Source: an uncultured Victivallaceae bacterium (GTDB taxonomy: Bacteria; Verrucomicrobiota; Lentisphaeria; Victivallales; Victivallaceae). From it: a stretch of DNA of 64,000 bases. The stretch lies in the NCBI GenBank assembly GCA_964392985.1, contig CAYMSF010000019.1, positions 1,160-65,159 of the forward strand. The letters are read 5' to 3'. The position numbers and the translations under genes were made by a program. Each line of letters opens with the position of its first letter. Within the stretch, counting starts at the first letter, position 1. Positions 42,685 through 52,033 of this stretch are shown in pieces. A model generated the notes under the pieces. The model was given only the letters and a program-made list of their open reading frames with translations. It made no database searches and was not told where the DNA came from.

Positions 42685-45600
42685 TTACTGTTGTTCATTC
42701 AGTAATTTATAAACCCTGAACAATTCCGTAACTCCCCACGCCTGAGCGCCACAACCGCGCCAATGATGGGGATAGTCACCATCCATTATTTCAGGGGTAT
42801 GGCCCGGCACGCCACAGTTAACTTGCTCCGTCGCCGACATTAAAATAGCGGCAGCGCGTTTCCGGCAGGATTCCCCGCCAGTTATAAATAAAGCTTCACA
42901 ATATGAGGGGAATGGCCATGACCAGGCCGTGCCGTTGTGATATGCCGGTTTTCTTCTGGTATCTTCATCGCCGAGATAGTGCCCCCAGTAGGGGTGAACC
43001 GGATCATTCAGTAAGACGTTATTAAAGTAAACCGGGAGCGGATACTTTACCGGCAATGCTGCCAGAGAACGGATCCCGCCGGGAATGAGCAATTGTTCAC
43101 AATCCCGTAATATTTCAATCATAATTTTCTCGCCGGTTACGAGTCCCAGAGTTATTGCAAACAACTGGTTGCAACGACAGGCATCGTCAGCAACTGCCTC
43201 CAGCGCAGAAATTCCTGGTTTGGCATGAAGACAATCACTCATCCGCTTTAATTCATGCAGATAAAATAGCTGTTGTACACTATTTTTCACCTGTTTAGCC
43301 AGTTCTGCGAATTCATGGTTGCCGGTGATTTTGCTCATAAACCGGAGCGCGGCAAACCAGAGCGCCTGAATTTCAATGGGATAACCTTCACGGGGTGAAC
43401 CTGCCGGGAAGTTGGTATCCATCCACGTATAATGTCCGGGACTGAAAATCAAACCGGTTTTTGGGTCCATTGCGATGCCATTCGGAGTACCGGAACGGTA
43501 ATGTTTGATGATAGACTCGAGCACTTGACGCAAGTCACGGCCTCCGCAATTTTCATCGAGAATTGATTTTCCTGCGACATGCACATAGTCGGCAACGGCG
43601 GTGAAAAACCATAATGGCGCGTCACTCGTATCCCGGTTGGAATTATCACTTCCTCTAATCATGTTCGGCAAAGTGCCGTGGCGTTCAAATTTTGCAAACT
43701 GGTGAATTATTTCGCGAGATTCCTGCATGAATCCGGCGGCAATCATGCCGCGCAGACAAATAAAGGTGTCGCGCCCCCAATCAAGAAACCAGGGATAACC
43801 GGCAATGACGGTACGGGAATCGTCACGCTTGACGATAAAATGACGGATTGCTGCCCGCAGCGTAGTTTCCGGCGCCAGACGTTGTGGAACCTCCGGTAAG
43901 GGTTGCTCTGTGAAAGTTGCCGGACAATTTATCCCGGCGGCGAGAATAACTTTACCGTCGCCTTCGAGTTCTGCGCTGAAAAATCCCGGACTGAATAAAT
44001 CGGTATGACATTCCATGCCGCGTTCAGATTCCATCGGCAGATATTCCATATAATGCCATTCGTGTTGTTCTGCAAAACAGCCGGGGGAAATGGTTAACGC
44101 CAGATTTCGTTTTTTTGACGGATTGAAATCAAAGCCGTCTTTTCTGGCAAAAACGGCAGCGCGGAAAGCATTCTCGGGACCGGAAATAGCCTTGGTAACT
44201 TCGTGTACACTGCGGTCTTCAATATCGGGCCGGAGAATTATTTTTACCGGTTCAGCGTCAACCAGTGCTGTCGTTCCGTCATCCGCGGCAGGAAGCCGGT
44301 GAAAGATGAGCTGAATAAGATTTTTGTCTTCTGACATTTGCAGTGTCATTTGCAATTTAATAGTTTTCCCCTGTCCCACCGGAACGGAAAAGAGCCATTG
44401 TGATTCATTGTTGATGCCGGAGATAAATTCTTGTGTACATAACTGATTAATTTCCTGCGAATAGTCACGATAAACAACCCAGCCGCGACAGCGTGAAAAC
44501 ATAACCTGGCGATCGACGGGAAATGACGGGTTACAATTACCTGCCAGTATGGCATCATATTTACTGTTAAGAATGCCCCATGCCCCGCAGATTTGACTCA
44601 TTCCGCCAAGGTCATTGGTGCATAATGAATAAAGCAACTTCCGTCTGGTTTCAATACCGGTAAACGATGCATTGAAACTGGTATCGCCGGAGGCTGCCAG
44701 AAGTAGTAACGGGGCGGTTGAACGTTTTGTTTTACCTGGAGCATAACTGATAAACAGCAAATCCATTGCCAGATGCTTTTCCGGTGTTTCGGCAAAAAAT
44801 GCAATGGCAAAATGTCTGCCGTCTTTAAGGGGAAAGCTTTCCATGGTGCTTCTGGTCATACTGTCCAGTTTAATTTCAGCGCGGAAAGGATGTTGTGACC
44901 ACAGAATCAGGTTATGGTTCGGGGGAATCATCACCTGCCGGTTCTGGTCGATGCCGTCATGCCAATTTACTACTGGAGGCAAATCCGTCGCGAAAATTTC
45001 TTCGCAGGCGGTTAATGGAGATTTTGCCAGCAATAGCGCCAAACGTTTTACCTCATCATTCTCTTCAATCAGCGGTTGTGAACTGCCGGTAGTTGCCAGT
45101 AATTTTAAAGCAAGATGGCGGAATCTCTGTTCAATTATTTTTGCGGCCGGTAATAATTTGGCATTTACAGCTTTGTTCAGTTCATTTAAATCCTCAGTCC
45201 GGGATGAAAGGCAGTAAACTTGACCCGGGGGTAAATGGCAATAAAGGTTTTCTCCACGGTCTTCACAGAAAATTTCACCTTCGCTAAGCAGGTCGATAAA
45301 TCCTCCGGGCGGAACATCGAACAATTTTTTCTTCCAGAAAATACCGTTGGCATTGTGTTCATCCAGATTGACAAGAATAAGTAATGTCCGGTTGTGTTCA
45401 GCGGCGTGTCTCAACAGTGCCAGATTATTTCCTGATCCCGCTTGAATCAGTTCCAGTGTCGCGCCGGCAAAAAATACTGGATGGATTGTGAGGATTGTCT
45501 GCAGGCGGCGAATAAGTTCAACCTGATTTTCCGTCGCGTTCCAGTTCAAAGGTGTGGCACCGTGGACATCAACTTTTGCCGTGGCAAACCATTCCACGCC

Positions 45601-46944
45601 ATTGGTAATACCAAAACCACCGTTTTGTGAGAACAACGCACACATTGCGGTGCGCATACCGGCATATTTAATGTTTCTGGCAGCCAGACGGCTGTTATCA
45701 TGAGTTTCGGCGAAGTGAACTTGTAACCCCTTGCGGTATCCGGTCCGGATTGTTCCCGGCAGATAGTTTTCAATCTGACTCCGGTCATAGTTTTGGAACA
45801 ACTCTGAATACGCCCAATTCAGCCCGGCATCAACCAGCAGATGTTCCGTTACTGAAACCAGCCCGCCCAGCCCTTCAAGCAGAAAAATGGTTTCAGGATA
45901 TTCCCGGCGTACTTTGGCGACGATATATTCCCAGGCTTCGTATGGCAGCATATAACCGGCATCACAGCGGAAACCGTCAACCCCGTGGCGGCACCAGAAG
46001 AGGAAAACATCAGCCATCAAGGCATGAACTTCGGCATTTTTATAATTGAGTTTGCACAAATCCTCCCATGTAACGCCCCAGGCTCCCGGACTTACAAAGG
46101 TACCGTCATCCCGTCGGACAAACCATTCCGGATGCTCTATCTGTTCGCGCGAAGCCCAGCCGGTATGATTGACGGGAATGTCAATAAATAACCTGGCATC
46201 ATGCGAGTGGATGGCATCAACTAATTCAATGAATTGTTCCAGCGGGGTTGCCTTAGGGTCAAATTCAGCGTAAGCCGGATTGACATTAAAGAAATCCAGC
46301 GCTGCGAAAGGACTGCCGAACCGTCCCATTCTTCCGTATGTTGTCGGCTCAGGATGTATCGGCAGCAACTGAATTATCCGGCTGCGCAAAGTGTTCGTAA
46401 TGAAATCCAGATGACGGGTGACAGCGCGAAAAGTGCCGGATGGCGGAATTACCGTATAGCCGGCCTGGTCCAGTTCAGCGAGATTCGTGGAATTCAAAAA
46501 TGAATCAGTTTTGTTTTCCAATTGCGGACCGAATTGACGGACGAATGCGGTATAGATGGTGTTGGCACAGACTCCGGATGACGGTTCCACTTTAATTTTG
46601 GTGTTTTCGCCTTCCACCCACAAGGGAGTGTTGGAGCCTTTTGGCAGATACCAGGCTTTTGCTGCAAAACAACCGACCTCAACTAAAGGCAGAGTAAGCC
46701 GGAAATGACCGGGATTTATCTGGTGCATCGGCAAATCATGCCAATCGCGGGCCAGAACCGGCTCGTCATTTTCGGTATGTCCGATAATTTCGTCCCGCCT
46801 TACTGCCGCATAACCGATATTGGTCCGCAAAAATGCCATTCCTCCGGCGTGCAAACCGGTTTCCAGCTCAAACTTGAGGCAATCTCCACAATAACGCAAA
46901 ATTTCTAAACTTGATTCCGGTGTCTGTTTCAATTCTATTTCCAA
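42685..46944 (-). CDS. glycogen debranching enzyme-like fusion: GH13 alpha-amylase-family domain + amylo-alpha-1,6-glucosidase (GH133/GDE_C) domain
   Basis: GH13 regions I-IV: FIDIPVNHTG, VDGFRCDAGYM, FLLEGLG, FAETHDN. C-terminal GDE_C: GYPWFLDWGRDTFICLRG, YTWMD, YPIEIQALWF, YHNGTAWSWPF. One uninterrupted 1419-aa ORF. Confidence 0.85.
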   Translation of the reverse strand: MEIELKQTPESSLEILRYCGDCLKFELETGLHAGGMAFLRTNIGYAAVRRDEIIGHTENDEPVLARDWHDLPMHQINPGHFRLTLPLVEVGCFAAKAWYLPKGSNTPLWVEGENTKIKVEPSSGVCANTIYTAFVRQFGPQLENKTDSFLNSTNLAELDQAGYTVIPPSGTFRAVTRHLDFITNTLRSRIIQLLPIHPEPTTYGRMGRFGSPFAALDFFNVNPAYAEFDPKATPLEQFIELVDAIHSHDARLFIDIPVNHTGWASREQIEHPEWFVRRDDGTFVSPGAWGVTWEDLCKLNYKNAEVHALMADVFLFWCRHGVDGFRCDAGYMLPYEAWEYIVAKVRREYPETIFLLEGLGGLVSVTEHLLVDAGLNWAYSELFQNYDRSQIENYLPGTIRTGYRKGLQVHFAETHDNSRLAARNIKYAGMRTAMCALFSQNGGFGITNGVEWFATAKVDVHGATPLNWNATENQVELIRRLQTILTIHPVFFAGATLELIQAGSGNNLALLRHAAEHNRTLLILVNLDEHNANGIFWKKKLFDVPPGGFIDLLSEGEIFCEDRGENLYCHLPPGQVYCLSSRTEDLNELNKAVNAKLLPAAKIIEQRFRHLALKLLATTGSSQPLIEENDEVKRLALLLAKSPLTACEEIFATDLPPVVNWHDGIDQNRQVMIPPNHNLILWSQHPFRAEIKLDSMTRSTMESFPLKDGRHFAIAFFAETPEKHLAMDLLFISYAPGKTKRSTAPLLLLAASGDTSFNASFTGIETRRKLLYSLCTNDLGGMSQICGAWGILNSKYDAILAGNCNPSFPVDRQVMFSRCRGWVVYRDYSQEINQLCTQEFISGINNESQWLFSVPVGQGKTIKLQMTLQMSEDKNLIQLIFHRLPAADDGTTALVDAEPVKIILRPDIEDRSVHEVTKAISGPENAFRAAVFARKDGFDFNPSKKRNLALTISPGCFAEQHEWHYMEYLPMESERGMECHTDLFSPGFFSAELEGDGKVILAAGINCPATFTEQPLPEVPQRLAPETTLRAAIRHFIVKRDDSRTVIAGYPWFLDWGRDTFICLRGMIAAGFMQESREIIHQFAKFERHGTLPNMIRGSDNSNRDTSDAPLWFFTAVADYVHVAGKSILDENCGGRDLRQVLESIIKHYRSGTPNGIAMDPKTGLIFSPGHYTWMDTNFPAGSPREGYPIEIQALWFAALRFMSKITGNHEFAELAKQVKNSVQQLFYLHELKRMSDCLHAKPGISALEAVADDACRCNQLFAITLGLVTGEKIMIEILRDCEQLLIPGGIRSLAALPVKYPLPVYFNNVLLNDPVHPYWGHYLGDEDTRRKPAYHNGTAWSWPFPSYCEALFITGGESCRKRAAAILMSATEQVNCGVPGHTPEIMDGDYPHHWRGCGAQAWGVTELFRVYKLLNEQQ

Positions 46945-47061: not shown

Positions 47062-48816
47062 CTATAAATGCGGCAACTCTGCCGGTAGAGTTGCCGCCCA
47101 CTTGGGGATACCGCGTCCGCGCAATTTTTTGACTGTTTTTCTGTGATGTTCAATTATCCATTCCCGTTCATGTTTTAAACCCGGATCACGATATGGCACT
47201 CCTGCCGTTGATTGCATAATGATATTCATCTCTTTTGTCGACAGTTGCGGAACATTGAGCATTTCTGTCCTGGTCGCACAAGTACCGCCGCGTTTTCTGC
47301 CGAATGGAGTTATTTCCGAGCAGAAAAACTGATTTTTGAGTAATGCGCCCCGGACAGGATAGGCACTGCTGTAAGTTAAAAGCATTCCCTGCGGTTTCAT
47401 TAAGGACTTTAACAGCCTGAAAAAGTCGAAAGTCCAAAGTTCAGGATTCACTTCTGCAGAAAATGCGTCCAGGAAAATCAGGTCAAACTGTCCACCTGAT
47501 GCGGTCGTAGCGGTTATTCTGGCATCGCCGGCAATCAAAGAGAGGTCTACATATTCATGCCGCCATATCTTTTTCTCATATAATTGCTGCAGTATCTCCC
47601 GTTCCATCGGGTCGATGCCATCGAGCGCTGCTGCAGCTTTAAGGACACGCAAATCATTTTCCAGCGCAACGATTGACAATTTTCCTGTGGCCTGTTCGAT
47701 TGCGGCGCGTACCGCGGCAAAACTGTTATAGCCAAGCCCGTAACCGACATCCAGCAACCGGATATTTTCGCCATTTTTTAACCTTTCAGCCAGTCGGGAA
47801 GGTTTTACAAACTTTAATTCGGCTTCTGAAACCGCGCCGGCGATAGAGTGGAAGTGCTGCCGGTATGCTGGATGATAAAGCGTCTTTGAACCGTCTGCGG
47901 TAACAACTCCGGTCAGTCCGGATTCAGTGTTTTGCATTTTGTCAATGATGAGTTGAATAACCTGACTTTTCTTCATCCACCATTTGGGTGCGATAAGTTC
48001 ATTAGCGTCAGCATCGGCAACCAGACGCATAATGACCCAGTCCCCGGGCAGTTGGCGCAGAAAAGCAACTGCGGCATCAGCATATTCATATTCATTCAGC
48101 GTTACCAGCCATTTCTCTCCTTGTTGAGCGTATAATTTTGCCAGCTCCGTATTTTTTAAAACCTGGAGTTGATGAAGTTTAATTCCGCTAAATGGCAAAT
48201 CAGCGACCCTTGCTGCAGTTTGTGCAAAATCAACCGGAGTTTCCCCGGGCAAACCGAGAATAAGGTGCGCCGCCACCGGAATCTGGCGTTCCGCCAGTTG
48301 GCGTACTACTTTTTCAACGGCTCCAAAATCATGGCCTCGCTTGATTAGTTTTAAGGTTTCATCATTTGCAGTTTGAACACCGAGTTCAATCCACACTTCA
48401 TATCTGGAGCGATACGACTCAAGTAAAGTTTGCACCTCATCGTTCAGGCAATCCGGCCTGGTTGAGATAATCATCATTTTAAAGTCCGCCAGTCCCAGAA
48501 CTTCATCATAATAACGTTGCAGCATTTTCACCGGAGCATAAGTATTGGTAAATGACTGAAAGTAGGCAATATAGGGCGGTCTTGCGTCATAACGTTCGCG
48601 GAGATATCGTTTGCCCGATTCAACCTGATCGGTGAGATTCAAGTTGTACTGCAAATGTTTTGCGCGGTTGCCGTCCTCCGCGCAATAAATACAGCCATTG
48701 CCAAAACGTTGTTCCCGGTTCGGGCATCCCAGCGGCAGATCTATCGCGATGCGTTGCAACTGCTGCCCATAACGTTTCTGTAAATAATCTTTGAAGAAAA
48801 AGAGTTTGTTCATCAT
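47062..48816 (-). CDS. fusion of TIGR01212-family radical SAM protein (YhcC/YtqA-like) and MnmC-type (MnmD/DUF752) SAM-dependent methyltransferase
   Basis: N-terminus: LPLGCPNREQRFGNGCIYC...SFTNTYAP...ISTRPDC...WIELGVQT. C-terminus: DGSKTLYHPAYRQHFHSIAGA...IRLLDVGYGLGYNSFA...FDLIFLDAFSAEVNPELWTFDFF...GMLLTYSSAYPVRGALL. Confidence 0.8.
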   Translation of the reverse strand: MMNKLFFFKDYLQKRYGQQLQRIAIDLPLGCPNREQRFGNGCIYCAEDGNRAKHLQYNLNLTDQVESGKRYLRERYDARPPYIAYFQSFTNTYAPVKMLQRYYDEVLGLADFKMMIISTRPDCLNDEVQTLLESYRSRYEVWIELGVQTANDETLKLIKRGHDFGAVEKVVRQLAERQIPVAAHLILGLPGETPVDFAQTAARVADLPFSGIKLHQLQVLKNTELAKLYAQQGEKWLVTLNEYEYADAAVAFLRQLPGDWVIMRLVADADANELIAPKWWMKKSQVIQLIIDKMQNTESGLTGVVTADGSKTLYHPAYRQHFHSIAGAVSEAELKFVKPSRLAERLKNGENIRLLDVGYGLGYNSFAAVRAAIEQATGKLSIVALENDLRVLKAAAALDGIDPMEREILQQLYEKKIWRHEYVDLSLIAGDARITATTASGGQFDLIFLDAFSAEVNPELWTFDFFRLLKSLMKPQGMLLTYSSAYPVRGALLKNQFFCSEITPFGRKRGGTCATRTEMLNVPQLSTKEMNIIMQSTAGVPYRDPGLKHEREWIIEHHRKTVKKLRGRGIPKWAATLPAELPHL

Positions 48817-49187: not shown

Positions 49188-49952
49188 ATGAATAACACAC
49201 TGCAAAATGGATTTATGCTGCTGGAGCATCTGGCGGCAACTGCGGATGAATGTTCAGTCAAAGAGTTGGCGGAACATTTCAAATTGCCGAACAGTCATGT
49301 GTGCCGGTTATTGAAGACGCTGACAGAGTCGGGTTATTTGCAACAAACGCCAGGTTCACGCAAATACCGGATCAGTTTAAAGATTTTTTGTCTTTCCAAT
49401 GCGCGGTTGCGGAAGCTTACGTTACGGCAAAAGGCTCACGGATATTTGCAGAAACTGGCGGCAAAAACCGAAACACAAGTATATTTAAGCGCACCGTTCA
49501 ATGGTTTGTCAATAGTTATTGATACTTTTTTTCCAGTGGCATGCGCAGATGATGCCGGGTTGGCGATTGGGCAGGTACATCCGGTAAATCGCAGCGCCTG
49601 CGGAAAAGTCTGTGCGGCCTATGTGCAAGATGACCAGATTGATGCTTTTCTTGCCGGAGTTGACTGGAGCGCCAGAACAACTCATACCATCACTTCGCCG
49701 GAACAATTCAAACTGGAACTGGCGAAAGTGAGGCGGGAAAAAATTGCCACGGTAGCGGCGGAAACCGAATTAGGAGTGGGGGCAGTCGGCGCGCCGATTT
49801 TCAACGCGGCGGGGGAACTTGCCGGAGCGATTGGCGCGGTATTGCCGGTAAGATCTTCCTGGCCGGTTGAACTTTGGGATAAGTTTAAAACTGAAACCCG
49901 GTCAATTGCGGCATCAATTTCGCTTGCGCTCGGATATGAGATGAAATATTGA
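49188..49952 (+). CDS. IclR family transcriptional regulator
   Basis: Winged HTH (VKELAEHFKLPNSHVCRLLKTLTESGYLQQ) plus an IclR effector domain (ELGVGAVGAPIFNAAGELAGAIG). Confidence 0.9.
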   Translation: MNNTLQNGFMLLEHLAATADECSVKELAEHFKLPNSHVCRLLKTLTESGYLQQTPGSRKYRISLKIFCLSNARLRKLTLRQKAHGYLQKLAAKTETQVYLSAPFNGLSIVIDTFFPVACADDAGLAIGQVHPVNRSACGKVCAAYVQDDQIDAFLAGVDWSARTTHTITSPEQFKLELAKVRREKIATVAAETELGVGAVGAPIFNAAGELAGAIGAVLPVRSSWPVELWDKFKTETRSIAASISLALGYEMKY

Positions 49953-50032: not shown

Positions 50033-50878
50033 ATGAACGCCGCACAAGTAAAAAAAGCCGCCAAGAAATTTGGCGCGGACCTGGTCGGAATTGCACCGAT
50101 ATCCCGTTTGGCACATCTCCCCAAAGAAAGTAACCCGCTGTCAATTTTCCCGGAAGCGAAATCGGTCATTGTCATCGGTCGCCGGATCCTGCGCGGTTCA
50201 CTGCGCGGGGTTGAAGAAGGCACCAGTTTTGACGGCACCTACCACTCATTCGGTTTCCGCTTTCTTGAAGACAATTTTCTGTCAAAAACCACCTATGATT
50301 TAAACTGCTGGATTGAAGCCCAGGGGTTTGAAGCTGTTCCGCTCTTTTCCTACGATCATGATGGCAGTGTTCAAGCGGTGCCGGTCGCGCCCGGAAAACC
50401 GGCGCCGAACGTTTATCTGAAATGGCAACTTTCCGCTCAAGCTGCCGGACTCGGTGAAATCGGATTGGGCGGTCTGTTCCTGACCCCGGAATTCGGACAT
50501 CGGCAACGTTTCGCCACCCTCCTTACCGATCAGGAACTAGAAGCCGACCCGGTAATGCCGCCGAAAACAATATGCAACAAATGCAAGGCCTGTATTGAAG
50601 CCTGCCCGTTGAATGCTTATGCCAAAACCACTCACAAAGAAGGCATCCCCGGCAGTGAATGTACCGTTGCCGATCTTGACGATAAAATTTGCGCAAAATG
50701 CGAGAACGGCGCCTGGATTCTACCGGGACGGTTCGATCATGTTGACCGCTGCGCCGCATCCTGCGGTCGTGCCTGCCTCGTCGCTTTGGAAACGAAAGGC
50801 GCGCTCTCAAATAAATTTGATAATGTATTCAGAAAACGTAGTGTCTGGAAGCGTTCTGTTCCCGGCCGCGCCAAGTAA
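50033..50878 (+). CDS. QueG/reductive-dehalogenase-superfamily Fe-S protein (single module, 281 aa)
   Basis: AKKFGADLVGIAPISR...AKSVIVIG, AAGLGEIGLGGLFLTPEFGHRQRFATLLTDQELEAD, CNKCKACIEACP, then RCAASCGRAC. No Tat or signal peptide. Confidence 0.7.
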   Translation: MNAAQVKKAAKKFGADLVGIAPISRLAHLPKESNPLSIFPEAKSVIVIGRRILRGSLRGVEEGTSFDGTYHSFGFRFLEDNFLSKTTYDLNCWIEAQGFEAVPLFSYDHDGSVQAVPVAPGKPAPNVYLKWQLSAQAAGLGEIGLGGLFLTPEFGHRQRFATLLTDQELEADPVMPPKTICNKCKACIEACPLNAYAKTTHKEGIPGSECTVADLDDKICAKCENGAWILPGRFDHVDRCAASCGRACLVALETKGALSNKFDNVFRKRSVWKRSVPGRAK

Positions 50879-50896: not shown

Positions 50897-52033
50897 ATGA
50901 GCAAAAAATTAACCTCGCAGATGATCAAAGATCTGGCGAAAAAGATTGGTGCGGGCGGCGGCGGCGTGGATATCGTCGGCATCGCTAACATCGAACGTTT
51001 TGCCGGAGCTCCTGAACGGATGCATCCGAAGAATATTTTTCCGGATTGCAAGTCCGTAATCTCTATTGTGCAGCCAATTCCGCGAAGCACCTACCGCGGT
51101 ATCACTGAAGGCACCCACTGGTCAAATTACACCTATTACTCATACAACCGTCTCAATACGCTGTTCCGGCCCATGGTCACCTATGAATTGGCGCGGATGA
51201 TTGAAGACTGCGGCTTTGAAGCAGTTCCAGTCTTCCCCGGCGTGCCTGAAATGTATCCGAACAAACCCGATCCGGTCGCTCCCGACCGTCCGGTTCCGGA
51301 TGTATATCTGAATGTGCGTATTGCCGGAGTAGCTTGCGGTTTGGGTGAAATCGGCTGGTCAAAAGTCTTCATTCATCCGGTTTATGGACCGCGCGTCCGA
51401 TTGGGTACCATCCTGACTGATGCCGTATTAGAGCCTGACCCGTTGATTAAACCCAAAACATTATGCAAGCACTGCATGAAGTGTGTTCCGGACTGCCCGG
51501 GCAATGCGATTCCGCGAAAGGGCGAAAAACCGAGCATCAAAATTAATATTGAAGGGCAGGAATATGAGTGGGGCGATGTTCACATGGGTCGTTGTACCGC
51601 AACGCACCACGGCATTAACTACAAAGCCTCGCCATTCCTTAAACGCTATTTCCCGGGTTTCGATCTGGAGGTGACTGAAAGTAATATGTCTGAAGAACTG
51701 GCATATAGAATAACTTATACGATGGCGCAGGCCAACTGGTATCGTCAAAATCCGGAATTTCCCAGCAATGATTTGAATCCGTTTTACAAGCAGATCATGC
51801 AACATGTTGGATATTTTGCGGTTTGCGGCGCCAAAGGTTGCATCAGATCCTGTATGGAATTCCAGGAAAAGGCCAAAAACATCAAACAGCATACTTTCAA
51901 GACTCCGGTATTCCCCGGTCCGAAATGGGCATTGAAAAAACCAAGTGAGGATGAAACCGGCGGGATTGTTGAAAACAAGAAACTAAAAAAACTCTATCAG
52001 GATCCGGACTTGGATGCCGGTTGCTGGAAGTAA
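50897..52033 (+). CDS. QueG/reductive-dehalogenase-superfamily Fe-S protein (single module, 378 aa)
   Basis: VDIVGIANIERF...CKSVISIV, ACGLGEIGWSKVFIHPVYGPRVRLGTILTDAVLEPD, CKHCMKCVPDCP, GRCTATHHG, CGAKGCIRSC. Confidence 0.7.
   Translation: MSKKLTSQMIKDLAKKIGAGGGGVDIVGIANIERFAGAPERMHPKNIFPDCKSVISIVQPIPRSTYRGITEGTHWSNYTYYSYNRLNTLFRPMVTYELARMIEDCGFEAVPVFPGVPEMYPNKPDPVAPDRPVPDVYLNVRIAGVACGLGEIGWSKVFIHPVYGPRVRLGTILTDAVLEPDPLIKPKTLCKHCMKCVPDCPGNAIPRKGEKPSIKINIEGQEYEWGDVHMGRCTATHHGINYKASPFLKRYFPGFDLEVTESNMSEELAYRITYTMAQANWYRQNPEFPSNDLNPFYKQIMQHVGYFAVCGAKGCIRSCMEFQEKAKNIKQHTFKTPVFPGPKWALKKPSEDETGGIVENKKLKKLYQDPDLDAGCWK

Follow-up and report, generated by a model that had tools for sequence, protein, structure and literature searches.

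A gene for a putative oxygen-independent MnmL-MnmC2 fusion enzyme of tRNA wobble-uridine modification in an uncultured Victivallaceae bacterium

In tRNA, the xnm5(s2)U34 modifications tune how split codon boxes are decoded. The question of how mnm5s2U is completed in anaerobes without the O2-dependent MnmC1 has been answered only recently, with the description of MnmL (2023–2026). In the 64,000 nucleotides from an uncultured Victivallaceae bacterium that we have analyzed here (the window), a first-pass annotation had marked an ORF at 47062..48816 on the minus strand as a radical SAM protein fused to an MnmC-type tRNA methyltransferase, i.e., as an oxygen-independent MnmC analogue in one protein. 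The locus raises the question of whether the fusion is real and, if so, whether a single polypeptide could finish the modification. We have confirmed that this is a genuine single gene in which a radical SAM enzyme (MnmL/YtqA) is joined to a tRNA methyltransferase (MnmC2). It is one open frame of 584 codons followed by a TAG stop, with no internal stops, and the Pfam and NCBIfam matches to both enzymes lie within it. The motifs quoted in the annotation (CPNREQRFGNGCIYC, LLDVGYGLGYN, FLDAFSAEVNPELWT and LLTYSS, the last one at residues 479–484 of the translated ORF) were all found where they had been placed. Translation probably begins at the second methionine (ATG at 48813), because a database copy (P0002) has 583 aa and the homologues begin with M-x-K.

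The N-terminal ~300 residues had been assigned to the TIGR01212 family, correctly as it turned out. The NCBIfam model, named "tRNA modification radical SAM protein MnmL/YtqA", matched residues 8–298 (47923..48795, minus strand) with 272.8 bits, over an equivalog cut-off of 180 bits, and the match covered positions 5–293 of the 302 in the model. In the same region Pfam located Radical_SAM (PF04055, residues 40–202, 52 bits) and Radical_SAM_C (PF16199, of the Elp3-like megacluster, residues 210–295, 67.4 bits). The [4Fe-4S]/SAM cluster motif CPNREQRFGNGCIYC (residues 31–45, 48682..48726, minus strand) has the form C31-x10-C42-x2-C45, and its three cysteines were invariant across 79 aligned homologues. 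Both Foldseek and the search of solved structures gave the Elp3 radical SAM domains as the nearest solved fold. B. subtilis MnmL (YtqA) and E. coli YhcC belong to the same equivalog family, and by analogy with them the expected reaction of this half would be the conversion of cmnm5s2U to nm5s2U without O2. As an MnmL, it is thus predicted to act on cmnm5(s2)U34 and to yield nm5(s2)U34.

The C-terminal half (residues 306–567, 47116..47901, minus strand) is an MnmC2-type domain, putatively a SAM-dependent nm5(s2)U34 methyltransferase of the Aquifex stand-alone (DUF752) type. Methyltransf_30 (PF05430) was found on residues 419–516 with 84.5 bits (Pfam cut-off 22 bits). The NCBIfam model for MnmC2, NF033855, gave 110.7 bits and remained under its cut-off of 136, though residues 314–516 covered model positions 2–208 of 209. 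This model appears to be tuned to proteobacterial MnmC, and the Aquifex-type MnmC2 is the better reference. Actually, residues 42–303 of the 308 in the Aquifex aeolicus MnmC2 structure 3VYW aligned with residues 297–561 of the window protein (E 7.9e-40), with 39% identity over 259 aligned columns, and when Foldseek was run with the AlphaFold2 model this half was again matched to 3VYW (TM 0.76 on the target). The MnmC-type identity given to the domain in the annotation was therefore upheld by Methyltransf_30 and by 3VYW but not at the threshold of NF033855. A GxGxG SAM-binding motif and a D-x-F-(S/A)...NPELW motif are both present. The former lies in motif I, LLDVGYGLGYN (residues 354–364, 47725..47757, minus strand), with G358, G360, G362 and N364 invariant in the alignment of 79 homologues, and the latter in the MnmC2 signature FLDAFSAEVNPELWT (residues 448–462, 47431..47475, minus strand), where D450, F452, S453 and N457–W461 were equally invariant. 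In the structure-database sequence alignment the FLDAFSAEVNPELWT block pairs with the DAFSPYKNPELWT block of 3VYW.

The methyltransferase had been drawn from about residue 310 to the end of the protein at 584. The identity of the domain holds but its extent does not: the fold stops at about residue 567, leaving a tail of ~17 residues with low confidence. We have also considered whether the ~70 C-terminal residues past Methyltransf_30 form an additional module, and this was ruled out, as residues 517–561 align with the C-terminal part of 3VYW and were modelled confidently. Since the alignment with 3VYW runs through to residue 561, residues 517–567 belong to the Aquifex-type MnmC2 fold and there is no added module.

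We have examined the source genome, a Lentisphaerota/Victivallales-like MAG of 433 contigs and ~95% completeness, for the remaining components of the pathway. Profile searches detected MnmG (746 bits), MnmE (342 bits) and MnmA (313 bits). The fusion gene carries the only Methyltransf_30 domain of the genome and its only TIGR01212 match above the cut-off. For the FAD-dependent MnmC1 (TIGR03197) the best score in the genome was 25.7 bits, located on dinucleotide-binding motifs, against a cut-off of 174, and for MnmM (PF06962) nothing was found above the cut-off; at ~95% completeness neither absence is absolute. However, none of the 41 genomes of the order had MnmC1 above the TIGR03197 cut-off, and Pfam and NCBIfam found no DAO/MnmC1 domain in the fusion protein itself. 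The two expectations attached to the annotation for this genome, that mnmE and mnmG would be present and an FAD-type mnmC(o) missing, agree with these results, and with a single PF05430 match in the genome there is no sign in it of a canonical full-length mnmC. Neither a haem-copper oxidase nor subunit I of a cytochrome bd oxidase was found in the source genome. By its gene content the organism looks like an anaerobe, and the lack of detected terminal oxidases fits an obligate anaerobe, one in need of an O2-independent route. Substrate tRNAs are encoded as well, specifically Glu-UUC (two copies), Lys-UUU, Gln-UUG, Arg-UCU and Leu-UAA. ARAGORN predicted 45 tRNA genes in the genome, among which tRNA-Gly(UCC), tRNA-Ala(UGC), tRNA-Ile and tRNA-Tyr were not found, most likely reflecting the incompleteness of the 433-contig MAG. 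The window itself contained no detectable tRNA genes or Rfam families.

We consider it very probable that the fusion is a bifunctional wobble-uridine enzyme, MnmL(YtqA)-MnmC2, that finishes mnm5(s2)U without oxygen in an anaerobic Lentisphaerota/Victivallales-like bacterium. In such a scheme, MnmE and MnmG (and MnmA for the 2-thio group) would first install cmnm5(s2)U34 on Glu-UUC, Lys-UUU, Gln-UUG, Arg-UCU, Leu-UAA and similar tRNAs. The radical SAM domain, with its [4Fe-4S] cluster held by C31, C42 and C45, would then cleave SAM reductively to a 5'-deoxyadenosyl radical, which would take a hydrogen atom from the cmnm5 side chain. Oxidative loss of the carboxymethyl group would then leave nm5(s2)U. 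This demodification would not require O2, in contrast to that of the FAD/O2-dependent MnmC1. The MnmC2 domain would finally use a second SAM as methyl donor and turn nm5(s2)U into mnm5(s2)U. The domain identities, the intact catalytic motifs, the conserved fusion, the full upstream pathway and the absence of MnmC1 and MnmM have been computed here; that both steps are carried out by this particular fused protein, and the site of hydrogen abstraction, we infer. The glycine alpha-carbon, the amine nitrogen and the C5-methylene are the candidate abstraction sites, and DFT favors N-H abstraction, after which an oxidative decarboxylation would give an imine that is hydrolyzed to nm5s2U (10.1101/2023.12.21.572861). 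The functional part of the first-pass annotation is in this way supported, with the activity remaining putative.

The alternative that survives best, although we regard it as unlikely, is that MnmC2 methylates nm5(s2)U made directly by MnmEG (the ammonium route, which has been proposed for Aquifex aeolicus), while the radical SAM half performs another tRNA or RNA reaction or has a regulatory or binding role. The methyltransferase half is indeed closest to the stand-alone MnmC2 of Aquifex, which works without a demodifying partner. In S. mutans and S. pneumoniae mnm5s2U persists after deletion of mnmL, but the ammonium route lacks direct evidence in vivo (10.64898/2026.05.18.725915). The subgroups of TIGR01212 were formerly considered not to be isofunctional (10.1101/2023.12.21.572861). 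However, the E. coli YhcC subgroup, formerly thought to be different, proved to be a true MnmL (10.64898/2026.05.18.725915), and at present TIGR01212 serves as an equivalog model for MnmL, whose cut-off is clearly exceeded by the window protein. Besides, that the fusion is stable across many lineages speaks for successive reactions on a single substrate.

Less probable still, to the point of being hard to sustain, is the reading of the C-terminal domain as a diverged Methyltransf_30 paralogue that acts on a substrate other than nm5(s2)U34. The sub-threshold score with NF033855 would agree with this, as would the finding of MnmC2-like domains fused also to TGT, YhdJ and MqnD, i.e., of a fold used in several contexts (10.1101/2023.12.21.572861). 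The identity with the characterized Aquifex MnmC2 nevertheless extends over nearly the whole length, neither the SAM motif nor D-x-F-S...NPELW varies among the homologues, and this domain is the sole candidate nm5U methyltransferase in the source genome.

A protein search returned 954 significant matches, and in all of the best 120 the three domains PF04055, PF16199 and PF05430 occurred together, mostly in proteins of 550–660 aa. Among the matches listed, the nearest one outside the protein's own cluster had 579 aa and was 90% identical, the next ones were at ~57%, and many others were at about 47–57%, some of them on megabase-length contigs. The named sources among these listed matches were Lentisphaerota, Victivallaceae or Victivallales MAGs. 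One of them, P0069, from Lentisphaerae bacterium GWF2_44_16, has 579 aa and shows 50% identity to the window protein across 98% of its length. The two halves are joined by a linker (NTESGLTGVV, residues 296–305, 47902..47931, minus strand) whose length and sequence vary among homologues (alignment columns ~297–320). In alignments of 18 and then 79 homologues it lies between the last conserved stretch of the radical SAM domain and the conserved start of MnmC2, T-x-DGS-x-T-L-Y-H-P. The linker region aligns among the homologues without a break in the frame. An AlphaFold2 model built on 79 homologues had a mean pLDDT of 92.2 and a pTM of 0.81, with disorder restricted to residues 578–584 and a drop of confidence at the linker, where pLDDT dips to 74. 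Foldseek against solved structures found none of MnmL or of an MnmL-MnmC2 fusion.

A sequencing frameshift joining two genes had been named beforehand as a danger to the fusion, and it was not found, given the same three-domain frame with an aligned linker in the best 120 of the 954 matches, from many genomes. The idea that the fusion is an artefact of assembly or sequencing, with a frameshift or missed stop merging two neighboring genes, has a negligible chance of being right and, judging from the conservation of the fusion, is effectively refuted: the source genome is a fragmented MAG (433 contigs), but the 90%-identical 579-aa copy comes from a separate source and has the same architecture, more than 100 homologues at 47–57% identity, most of them full length, share it, relatives with complete or near-complete genomes have it in one open frame, and cultured Victivallis and Kiritimatiella strains are on the published list of fusions (10.1101/2023.12.21.572861).

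The distribution of the MnmL-MnmC2 fusion was followed in a sample of 121 genomes of the phylum of the window. A full-length fusion was present in most genomes of its own family, in all those sampled from the order's two other families, and also in several more distant families of the phylum. The exception within the family was one genus of small genomes (seven genomes, 1.9–2.7 Mb), which lacked both the MnmL half and the MnmC2 half, while all the other sampled genera of the family retained the fusion. This suggests a lineage-specific loss of the last two steps, and without either half these organisms therefore probably stop at cmnm5s2U. Three genomes of another family of the phylum had separate MnmL-like (315–370 aa) and MnmC2-like (260–290 aa) genes on different contigs. 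Fused and split forms of the pair coexist in one phylum, and the split pairs show both activities occurring together without being fused.

The MnmL-MnmC2 type of fusion is already known, close relatives from the same group included, and the window gene is an ordinary orthologue. Jaroch et al. described 73 YtqA-MnmC2 fusions, three from COG genomes and 70 from InterPro; these, together with the clustering of ytqA and mnmM, pointed to YtqA as the enzyme that was missing, and this was then confirmed genetically (10.1101/2023.12.21.572861). The Supplemental data S4A of the same work lists the Lentisphaerae bacteria GWF2_38_69, GWF2_45_14 and GWF2_44_16, Victivallis vadensis (A0A2U1AFG2), V. lenta and Victivallales CCUG 44730, Kiritimatiella (K. 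glycovorans A0A0G3ECZ6), Kiritimatiellaceae and Tichowtungia, as well as Sulfurospirillum, Malaciobacter, Sulfurovum, Desulforhopalus and a Margulisbacteria MAG (10.1101/2023.12.21.572861). The Kiritimatiella, Victivallis and Sulfurospirillum entries noted in the network table of that work belong to SSN cluster 8 (10.1101/2023.12.21.572861). The window protein, encoded by one ORF in which a YtqA-type radical SAM domain precedes MnmC2, falls in this class of fusions; domain order, length (~550–600 aa), clade and predicted function are the same, and we have found no difference of substance, the protein being a further orthologue from an uncultured relative. A0A1G0YX84, one of the listed fusions (579 aa, GWF2_44_16), and P0069, also of 579 aa, are named after the same MAG.

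The fusion had also been put forward as independent genomic evidence for the role of MnmL, and the novelty implied by this does not stand. The same evidence had already been used by Jaroch et al., whose discussion states that MnmL/MnmC2 fusions suggest that the pair converts cmnm5s2U, with the predictions awaiting experimental validation (10.1101/2023.12.21.572861). Architecture, orthologues from this clade and interpretation were all there, and the implied novelty therefore fails. In the same way, the idea of an oxygen-independent MnmC analogue is the thesis of the 2026 preprint on YhcC, in which the O2 dependence of MnmC1 was demonstrated in vivo and in vitro, YhcC was identified as the MnmL of E. 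coli by the conversion of cmnm5s2U-tRNA to nm5s2U-tRNA in vitro, an anaerobic role was described for MnmL/YhcC, and MnmL-only organisms were seen to tend to be anaerobes (10.64898/2026.05.18.725915). In the literature search no later experimental work on a fused MnmL-MnmC2 enzyme was found. No new concept is thus involved: the class, its interpretation and its spread (Lentisphaerae, Kiritimatiellae, Campylobacterota, Desulfobacterota and Margulisbacteria) are already in the literature and in the NCBI family naming. What the window gene provides is an apparently clean example of the O2-independent solution on one polypeptide, in a host in which MnmC1, MnmM and terminal oxidases were not detected.

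The comparison with other systems concerns mainly how the two activities are put together. In Bacillota, where the activity of MnmL is supported genetically (that of E. coli YhcC having been shown in vitro; 10.64898/2026.05.18.725915), the partner methylase is the unrelated MnmM (YtqB in B. subtilis), encoded adjacent to MnmL or fused to it, whereas here MnmC2 is in cis and MnmM is absent. E. coli YhcC is a stand-alone protein relying in trans on the MnmC2 domain of MnmC, unlike the fused pair of the window. E. coli MnmC (PDB 3PS9/3AWI), with a homologous methyltransferase domain, resembles the window protein in having demodification and methylation on one chain, but its order is MnmC2-MnmC1, with the O2-requiring FAD oxidoreductase at the C-terminus, while in the window protein an unrelated radical SAM domain is located N-terminal of MnmC2. 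The closest solved relative of the C-terminal half, Aquifex aeolicus MnmC2 (DUF752, 3VYW), shares with it a helical C-terminal extension missing from E. coli MnmC2, and differs in being stand-alone, without a fused or known demodifying partner. The methyltransferase activity of this Aquifex protein has reportedly been characterized.

The two domains of E. coli MnmC act independently. The compact two-domain model of the fusion leaves room for a fixed arrangement of the domains, with both steps served by a single binding of the tRNA and the nm5 intermediate or the anticodon loop passed straight from the radical SAM site to that of the methyltransferase; we advance this tentatively, and on balance doubt it. 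If it were true, no system would be better suited than the Lentisphaerota/Kiritimatiellia fusion to a first MnmL-tRNA structure and to the mechanism. A single-chain two-step enzyme could also be convenient for the first biochemistry and structure of fused MnmL-MnmC2.

Concerning the neighborhood, we looked for a functional link of the fusion gene to the surrounding genes and found no supporting evidence, the QueG-like matches described below being weak and confined to the ferredoxin motif. The next gene downstream, separated from the fusion gene by 117 bp, is an ORF of 1419 aa (42685..46944, minus strand) with an N-terminal alpha-amylase catalytic domain (residues 146–333), the glycogen-debranching domain GDE_N (774–999) and GDE_C (amylo-alpha-1,6-glucosidase, 1035–1410), which by these domains is a predicted, unusually long fused glycogen/starch-processing enzyme. 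On the other side an IclR regulator (49188..49952) is divergently oriented. Downstream of this regulator two adjacent paralogous ORFs of 281 and 378 aa (50033..50878 and 50897..52033, plus strand) had no Pfam matches. Their local NCBIfam matches to TIGR02486 (reductive dehalogenase) and TIGR00276 (QueG) were weak (35–45 bits, far under the cut-offs) and corresponded only to the 4Fe-4S ferredoxin motif, so that these ORFs look like an uncharacterized pair of RdhA/QueG-like Fe-S proteins.
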